Source of the DNA: Escherichia coli
Lineage (GTDB): Bacteria > Pseudomonadota > Gammaproteobacteria > Enterobacterales > Enterobacteriaceae
Assembly: GCF_050920415.1 (NCBI RefSeq)
Contig: NZ_CP169309.1
Length of the DNA stretch: 64,000 nt
Reading direction: 5' to 3' (one strand)
Position numbers and translations under genes: made by a program. Below the pieces are notes generated by a model. It had not been told where the DNA came from and did no database searches. It saw only the letters and a list, made by a program, of their open reading frames with translations. Each line of letters opens with the position of its first letter. Positions within the stretch are counted from its first letter, which is position 1. Positions 45,241 through 51,048 of this stretch are shown in pieces.

Positions 45241-45417
45241 CTACAGTTTCTTAATTAATAGCCCATTATCAAGTAATAATTGCATTTGCTCGCGGCTCAT
45301 TAGTGAATCTTTCCAGTATGGGTCATCAATAGTCATAATCATCACTTTGTCGCCTTTTAGCATGTAGGCTATACCGAACAAAGTATGTGAATAAACACCA
45401 TCTTCGATCTCATTCAT
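45241..45417 (-). CDS. small protein, paralogue family member (58 aa)
   Basis: MNEIEDGVYSHTLFG...; ATGA-coupled to upstream paralogue. Confidence 0.4.
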   Translation of the reverse strand: MNEIEDGVYSHTLFGIAYMLKGDKVMIMTIDDPYWKDSLMSREQMQLLLDNGLLIKKL

Positions 45418-45596
45418 AGTCCGCTAACCCTTACCACATCGCCGTTATAAAGCATGATTTCAATCATTGCTCGCGTCATCTCGATGAATGGCTTCCTCCA
45501 GTCACCACCATCAATACAGACACGAATATCATCACCTTCCACGCGGTAAAACATCTCGTCGATTAGTGTTACGGCGTATATACCATCTTCAATCAT
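45414..45596 (-). CDS. small protein, paralogue family member (60 aa)
   Basis: MIEDGIYAVTLIDEMFYRVEGDD...; shares DG[IV]Y..L......Y..EGD motif. Confidence 0.4.
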   Translation of the reverse strand: MIEDGIYAVTLIDEMFYRVEGDDIRVCIDGGDWRKPFIEMTRAMIEIMLYNGDVVRVSGL

Positions 45597-45821
45597 TTAA
45601 CTATCCTCTTTGAATAGCCTAAATTTAATATCGCCAATCTTGCGCCAGTATCCGTGATTAAACATCGCGATGATCTCCGCAGATGTCATAGTTAAAAACG
45701 GTTCATGCCACGGCTCAAGCTGGTGTAATCGCATCATTACGTGTTCACCTTCAAGGCGATAATAAGCGCGTGACGCCAATGACTGATAAACACCGTCATA
45801 TTTATGGTCGCTATTTCCCAT
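45597..45821 (-). CDS. small protein, paralogue family member (74 aa)
   Basis: start MGNSDHKYDGVYQSL with AAGGGG RBS. Confidence 0.4.
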   Translation of the reverse strand: MGNSDHKYDGVYQSLASRAYYRLEGEHVMMRLHQLEPWHEPFLTMTSAEIIAMFNHGYWRKIGDIKFRLFKEDS

Positions 45822-46011
45822 TTTTACGCCCCTTAATGGCTCTTTTGATCTGCGTGCGCGTGGCATCGACGAAAGCGATAAACACCGCTACAGGCCAGAA
45901 AGGAATCTCAAGGCCACCACGATCGAGATCATTAGATTTGATAAAACAATACATCAGGATAGCGCCAGCGATATAAAGGAGAAACACAGCAATGATAAGA
46001 CATTCAATCAT
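45811..46011 (-). CDS. small membrane protein (66 aa)
   Basis: two hydrophobic segments; GAGAAAGAGG RBS. Confidence 0.4.
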   Translation of the reverse strand: MIECLIIAVFLLYIAGAILMYCFIKSNDLDRGGLEIPFWPVAVFIAFVDATRTQIKRAIKGRKNGK

Positions 46012-46144
46012 CCTCTTTCTCCCCGCCTAAATATTGATATATTTCTTCAGCATTTTCCCCGCGCTCAAAACAATAATGTTCAAACATGCGCCAGTGTTCA
46101 CTAAGAAACATAACAATAAAATTGTTAACGTATTCGTCATCCAT
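46004..46144 (-). CDS. hypothetical small protein (46 aa)
   Basis: AGAGGA RBS; tightly packed. Confidence 0.3.
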   Translation of the reverse strand: MDDEYVNNFIVMFLSEHWRMFEHYCFERGENAEEIYQYLGGEKEDD

Positions 46145-46146
46145 AG

Positions 46147-46398
46147 TTAATCATCCTCTTCATCGTCTTCTTGTTCAGCCAGGAAATCATCGACGGCACG
46201 GTAAGTGACTGGCGGGACGTATTCGAAATCATCACTATCAAGATCGAGCGTCCGGCTGTCGCCGTCGTCGTCCATCGTGTTCATCCCCAGCTCACCGAAA
46301 GGACCGTATCCAATGTGGCCCAGGTATTCGCAACCAGTCGTAAAGCCAGGGTATTCACCTTTACAACGGATTTTGTAAGGTTTATTTGATGCGCTCAA
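46147..46398 (-). CDS. hypothetical acidic small protein (83 aa)
   Basis: C-terminal acidic tail EQEDDEEDD. Confidence 0.35.
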   Translation of the reverse strand: MSASNKPYKIRCKGEYPGFTTGCEYLGHIGYGPFGELGMNTMDDDGDSRTLDLDSDDFEYVPPVTYRAVDDFLAEQEDDEEDD

Positions 46399-46705
46399 TT
46401 TTTGAGTCTCCGTCTTCTGTCGGGGTTATTTTGTATTCTGCCGCCAGTTCTGCACCAACCAATTCAACCTCGATTTCAGGGAAAGGATTAAGCATCAGTG
46501 CGGCAAAAACAAAATGTTTAACGTGATTTGCATATTCAAGGTGTTTCACGTCAAAAGGTGGTTCCGATACGTGGAAGCATTTAACGTGCGCGTCGTCTTC
46601 AGTAGCTACACGGAAACATACGCCAGGTTGCCCGGCGAATTTGCCATTTTTTTCATCTTCTGAAATAGTGCCACGGAAAACTTTAACGCTGATAAATTTA
46701 GACAT
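46382..46705 (-). CDS. hypothetical protein (107 aa)
   Basis: ORF in packed array. Confidence 0.35.
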   Translation of the reverse strand: MSKFISVKVFRGTISEDEKNGKFAGQPGVCFRVATEDDAHVKCFHVSEPPFDVKHLEYANHVKHFVFAALMLNPFPEIEVELVGAELAAEYKITPTEDGDSKIERIK

Positions 46706-46708
46706 TGT

Positions 46709-46963
46709 TTATTCTCCTTCGTAAAAAACAGCTACCAGTTCAGGATTGTTTAATGGGTTGGAGCAAGAATAAAAACCACTTCGCAATAATCCTCTAAGCG
46801 CCTTTATTTTTCTGTGCGCCGGGATTGACTCGCTTAAATAGAAATCATCTTTCCTTTTGTCATAAGGTAGCTCGTAAAACCTACCATAATTGACGAATTG
46901 AACGACGCGGCTGTACTCACCATCAATCCTACTAACGCCGCGCCAAATCCTAAATACAACCAT
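46709..46963 (-). CDS. hypothetical protein (84 aa)
   Basis: ORF in packed array. Confidence 0.3.
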   Translation of the reverse strand: MVVFRIWRGVSRIDGEYSRVVQFVNYGRFYELPYDKRKDDFYLSESIPAHRKIKALRGLLRSGFYSCSNPLNNPELVAVFYEGE

Positions 46964-46965
46964 AA

Positions 46966-49242: not shown

Positions 49243-49472
49243 TCCACTGTCTCCCAGCGGTCAATGCTGATTAAAAAATCCCGGATAGCGTGGCGTTCGT
49301 CGCGCGTTGGCTTGCGCTTCCGGTAAATCTTGAAATCGAACCATTCTTTTTCTTGTTCGAAATCCAGATCGTAAGCAAGCGCCTCAATATATCCGCATTC
49401 GTGATACTGGTACGCCACGCCAGCACGAACAAAAAAGCGGGTTTTATCCCGCTTGTGTTCATAAATACGCAT
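49239..49472 (-). CDS. hypothetical protein (77 aa)
   Basis: ORF in accessory array. Confidence 0.3.
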   Translation of the reverse strand: MRIYEHKRDKTRFFVRAGVAYQYHECGYIEALAYDLDFEQEKEWFDFKIYRKRKPTRDERHAIRDFLISIDRWETVE

Positions 49473-49482
49473 ATTTACCCCG

Positions 49483-49713
49483 TTATGCAGTTGTGTAGCT
49501 GTCTACCAGCTTTTCATCCTTCATTCTGGCAAGCTGTGCGATGTTCATCGTGTAGCCGCCATCAGAGAAAAGCCACTCCGCCGCCTTGCGACGAAAAGTA
49601 ATATCATCATGGTTGCGCGTCCATGTGGCGATCACCACGCGCTTTCCGTCAGTGGCAAACATAGATAATTCATTATCAACTACGTCGATAGCCTGCCAGA
49701 TTTTTAGCTCCAT
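49483..49713 (-). CDS. hypothetical protein (76 aa)
   Basis: ORF in accessory array. Confidence 0.3.
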   Translation of the reverse strand: MELKIWQAIDVVDNELSMFATDGKRVVIATWTRNHDDITFRRKAAEWLFSDGGYTMNIAQLARMKDEKLVDSYTTA

Positions 49714-50069
49714 GATTTATCCCCGTAAATTTTGAATAATTCCCGTGCTTCCTGATCTTCGAATAACTTCATATGCAGATCATGCAGGCGTCGCATTGTG
49801 CGGAAGCGTGGTCTGAATTCTTGACCCCTTTTAATGTATTTATCGCCAATTGAATAAATATGACCGTATGAATACCATCTATTACCGACCCAAATTAGAT
49901 AAATTTCACCCTCATAATTAAATTTGATTGTAAGCTCGTCAACCTCCATTATTAATCCTTTATCGAGTATATCATTTAGCATATCATCCCATTCTTTGAG
50001 GAATGGTTGTTGATAAAAACCGAAAAGAGTATTTACAGCGTGGCAAAGGTAATCAAGGATTATTTGCAT
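49704..50069 (-). CDS. hypothetical protein (121 aa)
   Basis: ORF in accessory array. Confidence 0.35.
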   Translation of the reverse strand: MQIILDYLCHAVNTLFGFYQQPFLKEWDDMLNDILDKGLIMEVDELTIKFNYEGEIYLIWVGNRWYSYGHIYSIGDKYIKRGQEFRPRFRTMRRLHDLHMKLFEDQEARELFKIYGDKSWS

Positions 50070-50073
50070 ATTA

Positions 50074-50289
50074 TCACCACATCATATAATAAACGTTATC
50101 GTTAGCTACTTCGTCGGCTTGTTCTTGTGTTAATAGCGGTGCGCTTTCCATAAAAGCATCAGAGTAATGCCACTCATAAACAAGCATACGCGCCCATTTG
50201 CGGCGCTGGCGCTTATTGTGTCGCAGATCATCAAAAGCCTTTAACGCTTTGTCATACGCCCTTACCAGGCGTTTACGGTTACTTTTCAT
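50074..50289 (-). CDS. hypothetical basic protein (71 aa)
   Basis: ORF in accessory array. Confidence 0.3.
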   Translation of the reverse strand: MKSNRKRLVRAYDKALKAFDDLRHNKRQRRKWARMLVYEWHYSDAFMESAPLLTQEQADEVANDNVYYMMW

Positions 50290-50299
50290 TTATTACACC

Positions 50300-50635
50300 T
50301 TAAAATCTGTATTGCCAGTAAATATCACACTTTATTGCGAATACCTTCACAGGATCAGGGCCGAATAGTGGATGTTGAATCGACTTGATTTCGTACCCCA
50401 TATAAGGCAATACGATAATCCGGTCTTTCTCATCATCAGATGGATAACCCCATTTAATGATTAATCTTGTGTACTCCCGCCCCTCAAGGCGTTTGCGCCA
50501 ATAGTCATTATAAAGCCGGTATTCCTCCACCTTCTTTCCAGCCCTGATAGCGTGGAAGTATTCTCCTTTTAAATTCAAATGCAGGTGCTTACTTGCCATT
50601 GCTATGATCCTGTAAACAGTCGTTATAGCCTTCAA
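50300..50635 (-). CDS. hypothetical protein, possible ASCH/PUA-like fold
   Basis: LNLKGEYFHAIRAGKKVEEYR resembles ASCH N-terminal pattern; weak. Confidence 0.3.
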   Translation of the reverse strand: MKAITTVYRIIAMASKHLHLNLKGEYFHAIRAGKKVEEYRLYNDYWRKRLEGREYTRLIIKWGYPSDDEKDRIIVLPYMGYEIKSIQHPLFGPDPVKVFAIKCDIYWQYRF

Positions 50636-50870
50636 TGTATCCGGTTAATCCGGTGTTACTCACTGACCATTCAGCCGTCCGGCGCTTGATGGCTTCGTCC
50701 ATCGTGATTTCGCCACCTGGCCCGCCTGGCTCAATATATTTTTTTAAATCTCTTGCTATCCACGCCCTTAATTGTTGTGTATCACGGCACAACCTCGCGG
50801 ATAATGTCAGGTCATTAACCAGCTTTGCAAATAGATGTTCTTTTAATTTAGGCTTCATCATCGTCACCAC
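50589..50870 (-). CDS. hypothetical protein (93 aa)
   Basis: ORF in accessory array. Confidence 0.3.
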   Translation of the reverse strand: MVTMMKPKLKEHLFAKLVNDLTLSARLCRDTQQLRAWIARDLKKYIEPGGPGGEITMDEAIKRRTAEWSVSNTGLTGYIEGYNDCLQDHSNGK

Positions 50871-51048
50871 GCTTGTAAATTTTCACAGGCTTAATAGGGA
50901 TGGCGGGTAATTCACCTTCATTTAACGCGCTTGCCATACCCAATATTAAACGCGCTTCAGCACCAGTGACTTTTTTGCACCATGCGCCGCCTGTTTTATC
51001 TTCGAATAAGATAACGGCAAACTGATCGTTTATTTCCAGCTTATCCAT
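50848..51048 (-). CDS. hypothetical protein (66 aa)
   Basis: ORF coupled to upstream Q-like gene. Confidence 0.3.
   Translation of the reverse strand: MDKLEINDQFAVILFEDKTGGAWCKKVTGAEARLILGMASALNEGELPAIPIKPVKIYKRGDDDEA

Follow-up and report, generated by a model that had tools for sequence, protein, structure and literature searches.

The window analysed here, a 64-kb stretch of Escherichia coli DNA, is a prophage of the mEpimmI (mEp021-like) coliphage group, which has been published previously (PMC11893012; Negrete-Mendez et al. 2025). A sequence-only reading of this DNA had pointed to some 24 packed minus-strand ORFs of 46–121 aa between a Q-like gene and the lysis genes; in the ORF list of the window, exactly 24 tightly packed ORFs of this size are found at 45241–51048 (o1–o24, Table 1). 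That reading depended on the 240-aa protein being a Q-type antiterminator, and judging from its matches the protein is indeed a genuine lambda-type Q. Its Pfam match is PF03589 (Antiterm; E=1.9e-29, 102 bits, cutoff 26.7) and its PHROG match is phrog_127 (E=2.4e-78); over 99% of its length, it shares 33.6% identity with lambda Q and 32.8% with P22 gp23. The expected lysis cassette follows on the other side of the array, with an HP1-family holin, a phage lysozyme (start set from the annotation of relatives) and the spanin Rz identified by Pfam. Homologs of NinG and RusA lie near Q, and the gene order is NinG, RusA, Q, array, holin, lysozyme, Rz. The Q-to-holin interval is far longer than in P22: it spans 5.8 kb, whereas in P22 the holin starts 435 nt past gene 23.

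Table 1. Features of the Q-to-holin region and its surroundings (positions in the window; relatives, 11 close relatives; arrays, 56 related loci).
Feature	Position	Strand	Evidence or remarks
nutR2-like site (putative)	53179-53211	-	boxA TGCTCTTTA and hairpin with A-rich loop
Q antiterminator, 240 aa, lambda/P22 type	51048-51770	-	PF03589, phrog_127
o1, 66 aa	50848-51048	-	phrog_35000 (E=5e-40); start overlaps Q stop by 1 nt
o2, 90-93 aa	50589-50870	-	phrog_29262 (E=1.5e-52); 9/11 relatives
o3, 99-111 aa, ASCH-like	50300-50635	-	phrog_625 (E=1.4e-37); weak Pfam ASCH match
o4, 71 aa, basic	50074-50289	-	phrog_8758 (E=7e-27)
o5, 121 aa	49704-50069	-	phrog_16975 (E=9e-56)
o6, 76 aa, core	49483-49713	-	phrog_38280; 11/11 relatives (83-100% identity), 56/56 arrays
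o7, 77 aa, core	49239-49472	-	11/11 relatives (95-100% identity)
o8, 75 aa, core in 11 close relatives	49015-49242	-	phrog_5009
o9, 71 aa, core	48795-49010	-	56/56 arrays
o10, 81 aa, core, basic	48553-48798	-	phrog_38609 (E=2e-53); 56/56 arrays
o11, 94 aa, rare accessory	48269-48553	-	no match in PHROG search; 3/11 relatives, 8/56 arrays
o12, 70 aa	48067-48279	-	weak phrog_31142 match; 6/11 relatives
o13, 71 aa	47842-48057	-	no match in PHROG search; 7/11 relatives
Intergenic gap, 108 nt	47734-47841	-	terminator-like hairpin 47775-47808, C13 run 47816-47828
o14, 90 aa, acidic	47461-47733	-	phrog_7287; net charge -13
o15, 46 aa, acidic	47309-47449	-	phrog_22232 (E=8e-35); net charge -8
o16, 99-109 aa	46966-47295	-	no match in PHROG search; 10/11 relatives
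o17, 84 aa	46709-46963	-	phrog_32200
o18, 107 aa	46382-46705	-	phrog_23107 (E=1e-54)
o19, 83 aa, very acidic	46147-46398	-	phrog_25234 (E=1e-54); net charge -16
o20, 46 aa, acidic	46004-46144	-	phrog_15754; net charge -10
o21, 66 aa	45811-46011	-	phrog_10061; hydrophobic N-terminal half
o22, 74-89 aa	45597-45866	-	paralog 1 of phrog_15318 family
o23, 60 aa	45414-45596	-	paralog 2 of phrog_15318 family (E=6e-28)
o24, 58 aa, last array gene	45241-45417	-	paralog 3 of phrog_15318 family
Non-coding block, ~85 nt, near-invariant (candidate PR'/qut/tR')	45136-45223	-	conservation, P22-like layout
-10 TAAAAT in block	45206-45211	-	
Pause-like element AACAAT in block	45193-45198	-	
Terminator-like hairpin with T tract in block	45160-45178	-	
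Holin, HP1-family	44935-45135	-	PF16080 (E=7e-15)
Endolysin (phage lysozyme)	44442-44933	-	PF00959 (E=6.5e-44)
Rz spanin	43984-44454	-	PF03245 (E=9e-25)
Rz1, candidate ORF embedded in Rz	44052-44264	-	by position only

The 24 small ORFs are real genes. We conclude this because most of the starts are preceded by a Shine-Dalgarno site of the GGAG/GGGG type and because, apart from the 108-nt gap and one of 105 nt ahead of the holin, the computed spacing between adjacent genes is only -56 to +13 nt. The genes are probably translationally coupled. In comparison to 11 relatives, divergence at codon positions 1, 2 and 3 is 0.126, 0.086 and 0.270, and the third position is the most divergent in 23 of the 24 ORFs. 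Furthermore, 20 ORFs match a PHROG family, and the independent PGAP annotation of the LSU61 prophage of E. coli O157:H7 has 26 genes in this interval, in agreement with the ORFs found here. Lastly, the positional counterpart of o9 in mEp021 (mEp021_41, annotated as 'virion structural protein') has been detected by mass spectrometry in mEp021 virion preparations (PMC11893012). That the ORFs are short and that four of them lack a PHROG match would also fit a non-coding spacer whose ORFs are decayed pseudogenes or arose by chance. Such a spacer would, however, not account for the divergence at third codon positions, the Shine-Dalgarno sites, the successive minus-strand frames that fill the 5.8 kb or the confidence of two AlphaFold models (pLDDT 92 and 95), and we regard this explanation as having next to no probability.

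The array proteins had been described as mostly without recognisable domains, and this agrees with our searches: no ORF reached the Pfam gathering score, and the sole hit was the sub-threshold ASCH match of o3. In the structure comparison that had been suggested, the two confident AlphaFold models had no informative structural neighbour; for one of them, the four-helix model of o14 (pLDDT 92), the best Foldseek match in the PDB had E=2. The array proteins gave no matches in PADLOC, NCBIfam and PDB searches. A relation to anti-restriction or anti-CRISPR proteins had also been raised; none of the array proteins matched a known counter-defence or host-takeover family. Likewise, we found no tRNA or toxin genes in the array, and its proteins matched no virulence, defence or resistance family.

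Some of the genes have relatives elsewhere. In related genomes, o3 carries the PGAP name 'RNA-binding protein'; P22-like, Stx and other phages have homologs of it that are 55–62% identical and often adjoin EaA/DUF551 genes. Salmonella P2-like prophages carry homologs of o5 in their early operon, with a Dam methylase on one side and gpA on the other, and a further one is found in Edwardsiella phage Edno5, 3 kb upstream of Q. At the protein level, o14 is 80.7% identical to proteins of rV5-like Vequintavirus phages, in which it lies in small-gene arrays, and 37–54% identical to genes of smaller coliphages, where DNA methyltransferase genes are no further than 2.5 kb away and, in one phage, directly adjacent. 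Homologs of o8 in rV5-like virulent phages are 38–41% identical, and o20 is 48% identical to a gene of Pectobacterium phages. The family of o9, on the other hand, is very narrow, with five representatives among 1.84 billion proteins. From its hydrophobic half, o21 is a probable membrane protein.

When we surveyed 56 related loci in which Q and a holin are both present, the array was found in all of them; it is thus constant in the mEpimmI/mEp021 group and not peculiar to this window. Its content varies widely: the Q-to-holin interval ranges from 2006 to 7256 bp with 8–29 ORFs, and the 56 arrays comprise about 40 families, of which six are core, and show 49 different gene orders. The core consists of about six genes (o6–o10 and o24), with o7 the most conserved, whereas the others were gained and lost among relatives. 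The array DNA is 85–87% identical to the mEpimmI phages and 96.8% identical to the LSU61 prophage, and its GC content (0.42–0.44) is lower than that of the flanks (0.47–0.49). The variable ORF counts, interval lengths, families and gene orders, together with the lower GC content, fit a variable accessory-gene region of a known E. coli phage group. A pool of about 40 families with six core genes is narrower than would be expected of a pure arms-race locus.

Low GC content and variable gene content are also features of lysogenic-conversion morons, i.e. genes that are transcribed independently from the repressed prophage and benefit the host. Morons have their own promoter and terminator within intergenic DNA. 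The array, in contrast, has a single internal gap between otherwise abutting genes, promoter-like sites are not enriched in the 12-kb region that includes it (42500–54500; 19 observed, 24.5 expected), and the family searches yielded no virulence, defence or resistance function. Morons are therefore a very improbable explanation.

Where the late promoter lies decides how the array would be expressed. One possibility is that the end of Q contains or adjoins the late promoter and qut, so that the array would come first in the Q-antiterminated transcript and be expressed like stx. The array is physically located between Q and the holin, its internal terminators need antitermination that Q could supply, and the detection of the o9 counterpart in mEp021 virions (PMC11893012) would fit late expression and runs counter to an early one. 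Yet the Q stop overlaps the next start, leaving no intergenic space, and across the 56 arrays nothing conserved or non-coding is found directly 3' of Q. The gene that follows Q is o1 in 46 arrays, o2 in three, o5 in three, o6 in two and another gene in two. In addition, promoter scans and a pattern search found no promoter-like or pause-like signature near the end of Q. Together with the absence of tRNA and toxin genes, these observations make late-operon cargo an unlikely reading.

The only strongly conserved non-coding block is instead found past the array, directly before the holin, and includes the holin Shine-Dalgarno site. Its mean pairwise identity is 0.954 compared to 0.74 in neighbouring coding sequence, its motif keeps a near-constant distance to the holin start in 56 of 56 loci, and most of the variation is confined to the hairpin loop and to the spacer that separates the -10 from the pause element. 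The block resembles a late promoter PR' with qut and tR'. Its layout is TAAAAT-N7-AACAAT with a terminator from about +21, similar to the annotated late control region of P22, where TAAATT-N6-AACGAT is followed by a terminator at +31. Both thus share a TAAAWT-type -10, AACRAT at the start site and an intrinsic terminator 20–30 nt later, all upstream of the holin (PR', qut and tR' lie within 60 nt in P22), and the Q proteins are homologous. They differ in that the annotated P22 promoter starts 43 nt past gene 23, whereas the block is 5.8 kb away from Q, in the sequence of the spacer (the would-be Q-binding element) and in the -35, which is weak in the window. The block is the sole match to TAAAWT-N5-8-AACRAT in the 64-kb window, although by chance 64 kb would be expected to contain this pattern 0.43 times. 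In seven of 12 genomes, TTGTRG-17-TAAAAT is among the four best of all coding-strand promoter candidates from the start of Q to the holin. The clade to which the window belongs (18 of 56 loci) has TCGCGC as its -35 hexamer, and a weight-matrix scan places the candidate promoter no higher than 85th; a simple consensus promoter scan reported none at the block. As the post-Q gene varies and overlaps Q, and as the sole lambda/P22-like promoter, pause and terminator signature adjoins the holin, the array most likely lies upstream of the late promoter, within the early antiterminated operon. Its genes would thus be early genes rather than Stx-style late cargo.

A putative nutR2-like site and the location of homologs in other phages are consistent with an early position. 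The nutR2-like site follows a terminator-like hairpin (53261–53296) and precedes NinG, RusA, Q and the array; in mEp021, nutR2 is located downstream of a cytosine methyltransferase gene (PMC11893012). Within the array, terminator-like hairpins occur inside o7 (49435–49454; -16.7 kcal/mol, z=-5.3) and in the 108-nt gap (-21.3 kcal/mol, z=-5.0). The latter is conserved in relatives, and ARNold-annotated terminators are found in a similar place in mEp554, mEp010 and mEp044. Where the region of homologs elsewhere could be identified, it is an early one, as for o5 (P2-like early operon, nin region) and o3 (beside EaA).

We lean towards an accessory region of an mEpimmI prophage in which the array belongs to the early operon, ahead of a late promoter at the holin end. 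After modification by the N-like Gp17 at the nutR2-like site (~53.2 kb), RNA polymerase would transcribe NinG, RusA and Q and then, as the last part of the early operon before the true late promoter, the array. This polymerase would pass three intrinsic terminator-like hairpins, the two in the array and the one before the holin. Q made from the same transcript would then act 5.8 kb downstream of its own gene, on the candidate cassette of promoter, pause element and terminator that immediately precedes the holin, and turn on the lysis and virion genes. Synthesis of the array proteins would fall in the delayed-early phase, and the non-core proteins would most likely serve host takeover, counter-defence or phage–phage competition.

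In Stx phages, PR'/tR' come before the stx cargo, which is Q-dependent. The position of the array had been likened to this cargo, which also includes tRNAs, nanS-p and other genes. The likeness holds physically, as both are of variable content and lie between Q and the lysis cassette. However, the array lacks toxin and tRNA genes, and with the PR'/tR'-like block past the array the analogy probably fails. The array also resembles the accessory regions of Silas et al. 2023 (bioRxiv 10.1101/2023.04.06.535777) in being a variable small-gene hotspot that is flanked by conserved core genes and shows signs of horizontal exchange, such as the similarity of o14 to genes of virulent rV5-like phages. Unlike these regions, it has no match to a characterised counter-defence gene and its pool of families is fairly closed; four array sequence motifs were not found in the supplements of that study. 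A further likeness is to the nin region of lambda and P22, which also consists of small, tightly packed, mostly dispensable-looking ORFs with terminators, in an early operon that is antiterminated and precedes the late promoter. The nin region, in the N-antiterminated PR operon, is located between the replication genes and Q, whereas the array, with NinG and RusA homologs nearby, comes after Q. The Q gene is therefore 2–7 kb away from its presumed site of action. The closest systems are the mEpimmI phages themselves (mEp021, mEp010, mEp013, mEp044, mEp515 and mEp554), which share the gene order and the block upstream of the holin. In the searched passages of the published description, accessory genes are placed mainly in the regulation cluster, and all that is said of the array is that a hypothetical protein encoded upstream of the lysis region is virion-associated (PMC11893012). 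The difference lies in the gene complement of the array, with 24 genes here, eight in mEp021 and up to 29 elsewhere.

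Between the Q and holin genes of the prophage lie 24 tightly packed ORFs of 46-121 aa on the minus strand (45241-51048), numbered here o1 to o24 from the Q side to the holin side. The sequence-only reading had described such an array of about 24 ORFs, and the gene order confirms it (see table). That reading tied its argument from position to the 240-aa protein next to the array being a Q-type antiterminator, and here it holds as well: the protein scores 102 bits against Pfam PF03589 (cutoff 26.7), matches phrog_127 with E=2.4e-78, and aligns over 99% of its length with lambda Q (33.6% identity) and P22 gp23 (32.8%). 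Judged by these matches, it is a genuine lambda-type Q.

Features from the methyltransferase-like gene to the lysis genes, in their order along the minus strand
Feature	Coordinates	Strand	Remarks
Cytosine methyltransferase-like gene	53309-54067	-	
NinG	52353-53048	-	
Terminator-like hairpin	52910-52928		inside NinG
RusA	51949-52356	-	
60-aa ORF		-	between RusA and Q
Q antiterminator, 240 aa	51048-51770	-	assigned by Pfam PF03589 and PHROG
Array, 24 ORFs of 46-121 aa	45241-51048	-	
Terminator-like hairpin	49435-49454		inside o7; -16.7 kcal/mol, z=-5.3
Terminator-like hairpin	47775-47808		in 108-nt gap; -21.3 kcal/mol, z=-5.0
Gap of 105 nt			between array and holin
Terminator-like hairpin			before holin, at 45160-45178 in conserved block
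HP1-family holin	44935-45135	-	followed by phage lysozyme and Rz with a candidate embedded Rz1 ORF

At 85-87% identity, the region matches the phages MagusPhagus, mEp010, mEp554, mEp044, mEp013, mEp021 and mEp515. Compared with mEp021-type genomes, protein identity is 84-99% for Q and 91-98% for the holin, and synteny and nucleotide similarity place the prophage in the mEpimmI group. The 2025 description of this group calls its members non-lambdoid coliphages that are Nus-dependent and have an N-like antiterminator, Gp17, as well as three nut sites; its authors state that among human faecal isolates mEpimmI phages reach the same frequency as lambdoid ones (PMC11893012). Prophages matching the region were found in 34 of 5426 complete E. 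coli genomes, O157:H7 and STEC strains among them. The other parts of the window are in keeping with this assignment: upstream of the array, the same strand encodes a CI-like repressor, Erf, SSB and Dam. The CI-like repressor (HTH and peptidase S24 domains) shares its strand with the early and late genes, and the gene for a Lin1244_N-domain protein has the opposite orientation (both in the region of 61089-61736 and 62042-63400), a layout that differs from the lambda immunity region. Just downstream of the spanin genes, there is a conserved 176-aa ORF without an assigned function (phrog_1365, 43126-43656), which by analogy with relatives would sit between the lysis and the packaging genes. The host sRNA genes frnS and McaS, at 2497-2614 and 5992-6087, belong to the chromosomal flank of the prophage.

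Several independent grounds show that the 24 ORFs are real genes. Neighbouring ORFs are separated by -56 to +13 nt, with the 108-nt gap at 47734-47841 and the gap before the holin gene as the only exceptions, and most starts are preceded by a Shine-Dalgarno sequence of the GGAG/GGGG type. When the array is compared to 11 relatives, the divergence at codon positions 1, 2 and 3 is 0.126, 0.086 and 0.270, and the third position is the most divergent one in 23 of the 24 ORFs. PHROG matches were obtained for 20 of the ORFs, all to families of unknown function, and PGAP annotates 26 genes in the equivalent interval of the 96.8% identical prophage of E. coli O157:H7 LSU61. Furthermore, o9 is the positional counterpart of mEp021_41, whose product mass spectrometry had identified in preparations of mEp021 virions (PMC11893012).

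To describe the variability of the interval, we used the 11 annotated relatives and 46 further IMG/VR loci, which gave 56 loci with both Q and a downstream holin gene. Among the annotated relatives, o6-o10 and o24 are present in all 11 and o16 in ten, and the remaining ORFs occur in three to nine. Across the 56 loci, the distance from the Q stop to the holin start ranges from 2006 to 7256 bp (median 5537), and an array contains 8-29 ORFs (median 21). These ORFs fall into about 40 families, of which six are core, 13 occur in 50-95% of the arrays, eight in 10-50%, three are rare and ten are singletons; 49 distinct gene orders were observed. The GC content of the array is 0.42-0.44, compared to 0.47-0.49 in the flanks. 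At the holin end, o22-o24 are paralogs within phrog_15318; all 11 annotated relatives have between one and three members of this family in tandem, immediately ahead of the holin gene. Repeated boundary sequences that might drive the shuffling of cassettes were not found in the array beyond chance expectation. Since the content varies between conserved Q and holin genes in these 56 arrays, we consider the array, on comparative sequence evidence, to be a variable accessory region of an mEpimmI-type phage. The genomes of the group are already public; the array itself is an uncharacterised member of the accessory regions.

The relation of the array to late transcription depends on where the late promoter PR' lies. 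The Q stop overlaps the start of o1, and there is thus no room after Q for a promoter, a qut site and a terminator. The gene that follows Q also varies: it is o1 in 46 of the 56 arrays, o2 in three, o5 in three, o6 in two and another gene in two. At the other end of the array, the approximately 85 nt before the holin gene have a mean pairwise identity of 0.954, compared to 0.74 for the adjacent coding sequence of o24 and 0.62 for its third codon positions. This conserved block reads AAACAAAyAGAT-TAAAAT-ATTTCCT-AACAAT-GCGAAATTGTAATT-ACCCGGCCCCGCGCCGGGTTTTTGCTTTG-TTGGAGG-N7-ATG. The annotated late control region of P22 has TTGACT-N17-TAAATT-TGACTC-AACGAT and a terminator at +31 to +59, so that the two share a -10 hexamer of the TAAAWT type, AACRAT at the start site and an intrinsic terminator some tens of nucleotides later. 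In lambda, an AACRAT-type element at the start site is a sigma-dependent pause element. The combination TAAAWT-N5-8-AACRAT occurs once in the 64-kb window, in the conserved block; as 0.43 occurrences are expected by chance, it is the position and the conservation of the match that count rather than its number. The block TAAAAT-N7-AACAAT-terminator is present in all 56 loci at a near-constant distance to the holin start, and its variable positions lie mostly in the terminator loop and in the spacer that separates the -10 hexamer from the pause element. The promoter spacer, AAACAAAyrGAT, shows the conservation that a Q-binding element placed as in lambda would have, and we propose AAACAAAYAGAT as the putative Q-binding element.

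The weak point of placing PR' here is the -35 hexamer in the clade of the window, which reads TCGCGC; the site ranks 85th in a weight-matrix scan. In about two-thirds of the loci the hexamer is TTGTRG, and there the site ranks among the top four of the coding-strand candidates from the Q start to the holin gene. A simple sigma-70 weight-matrix scan singled out no strong promoter between Q and holin. An unannotated record of an Stx2c phage with a homologous Q lacks the motif and so says nothing on the contrast with Stx phages. A hairpin in the block (ACAAT-GCGAA-ATTGT) was considered as a boxB-like element and rejected, as the common ACTGT variant breaks the stem with no compensating change. 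Taken together, we consider it fairly probable that PR', qut and tR' are located at 45136-45234, which would place the array upstream of the late promoter. Q is then likely separated from its qut site by a variable region of 2-7 kb.

Further upstream, a boxA-like sequence (TGCTCTTTA, 53203-53211) and a hairpin whose loop is rich in A together occupy 53179-53211 on the minus strand, right after a terminator-like hairpin at 53261-53296. In mEp021, nutR2 is described as lying downstream of the methyltransferase gene (PMC11893012), and the element at 53179-53211 probably corresponds to this site. Several terminator-like hairpins follow along the transcript (see table), a pattern that would be the signature of a processively antiterminated operon. 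In the simplest reading, the delayed-early genes would comprise NinG, RusA, Q and the array, all transcribed by a polymerase that Gp17 has modified, and Q would afterwards act on the holin-proximal cassette. One terminator, 't5', has reportedly been verified experimentally in a study of Gp17 antitermination in mEp021; it may be the counterpart of the one before the holin gene. Two further sites were observed within the array. Just upstream of the hairpin in the 108-nt gap, the minus strand carries a run of 13 C (47816-47828), where the LSU61 prophage has CCCCCGC and other relatives have CCTCGC or TCTCTC; either the homopolymer expanded recently or the run is an artefact of sequencing. On the plus strand, TTTGCA-16-TATAAT at 50063-50090 is the best match to the sigma-70 consensus in the scanned region (10 of 12 positions); placed antisense to the junction of o4 and o5, it could give rise to an antisense transcript.

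The array had been described as mostly without recognisable domains, and this is borne out: none of the 24 proteins reaches the Pfam threshold, and only o3 gives a weak ASCH signal. A comparison with anti-restriction and anti-CRISPR families had also been suggested; in the comparison with known defence and anti-defence families (Pfam, PADLOC, NCBIfam, PDB), no match was found among the 24 proteins. PADLOC matched none of them, NCBIfam gave spurious weak matches only, and neither PDB sequence searches with o3, o5, o9 and o10 nor profile searches with the families of o5 and o24 yielded a hit with E < 0.4. Neither the four-helix AlphaFold model of o14 (pLDDT 92) nor that of o24, which consists mainly of beta strands and has one helix (pLDDT 95), has a significant neighbour in the PDB. 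Four products are strongly acidic (net charge -13 for o14, -8 for o15, -16 for o19 and -10 for o20), which is compatible with roles as DNA mimics or protein decoys and proves nothing.

Homologs outside the group sit in early or accessory regions wherever the region is identifiable. Those of the ASCH-like o3 adjoin EaA/DUF551 genes in P22-like and Stx phages, and those of o5 are found in the early operon of Salmonella P2-like prophages, between Dam methylase and gpA, and in Edwardsiella phage Edno5, 3 kb upstream of Q. The o14 protein (47461-47733) is 80.7% identical to products of virulent rV5-like (Vequintavirus) phages, where the genes lie amid small hypothetical genes, which suggests a recent exchange between temperate and virulent phages. 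It is also 37-54% identical to gene products of smaller coliphages that have a DNA methyltransferase gene within 2.5 kb (adjacent in one). Homologs of o8 in rV5-like phages are 38-41% identical. The same rV5-like coliphage genes, with identical similarity, are present in 17-18 records labelled 'Campylobacter phage' (~128-143 kb, host C. jejuni), and these labels look doubtful. Exhaustive searching of 1.84 billion proteins with an HMMER profile of o9 gave only five representatives, and the o9 family is thus lineage-specific. At the 3' end of o9 (48795-48850, overlapping the o10 start), the C-terminal peptide KRPANLEEEMLIDEVLK is invariant even in 45% identical homologs, and relatives of o9 have either a 71-aa form or an 82-aa form whose frame runs into o10 (ending ...LI-EVIKNENQ...).

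About 40 families of uncharacterised small proteins are gathered between Q and holin, and they are evident candidates for counter-defence and host-takeover screens; the two families sampled by structure prediction gave confident models with no informative structural neighbours. A wider proposal, which we put forward tentatively and regard as rather doubtful, is that the array is a reservoir of early counter-defence and host-takeover proteins, some with new folds and some common to virulent rV5-like and T1-like coliphages, and that the normally inseparable Q-qut module is split by a variable region of 2-7 kb whose accessory genes are transcribed together with Q. If the late promoter is located at the holin end, the group shows that qut can lie at a distance from a lambda-type Q gene. 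Such a separation would bear on the prediction of early- versus late-induced prophage cargo, and a gene between Q and the lysis genes could not be assumed to be expressed like stx.

Lastly, we compared the array to known systems. The sequence-only reading had placed it where Stx toxins and other cargo sit in related phages. It does lie between Q and the lysis genes; however, the sole PR'/tR'-like block comes after it, and no conserved or non-coding sequence follows directly after Q. Late cargo of the Stx type is Q-dependent and lies downstream of PR'/tR', whereas the array would precede the candidate PR'/tR'. Such cargo also carries toxin and/or tRNA genes, whereas we found no tRNA genes in the array interval and no Pfam toxin domains among its proteins. 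No Rfam elements were found in the array. A moron is framed in intergenic DNA by a promoter and a terminator of its own, whereas the ORFs of the array are closely joined; promoter-like sites in a 12-kb region including the array are no commoner than in shuffled sequence. The array behaves like the phage accessory regions of Silas et al. (bioRxiv 10.1101/2023.04.06.535777), although four of its peptide motifs had no match in the supplements of that study. An early region of the nin type lies between the replication genes and Q, whereas the array lies downstream of Q. Such a region is part of the N-antiterminated early operon, downstream of nut and upstream of the late promoter, and the array may share this placement, between the nutR2-like boxA and the PR'-like block at 45136-45223, both putative assignments from sequence. 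In its behaviour, the array resembles the nin region of lambda and, on the sequence evidence, is unlike Stx cargo and morons.
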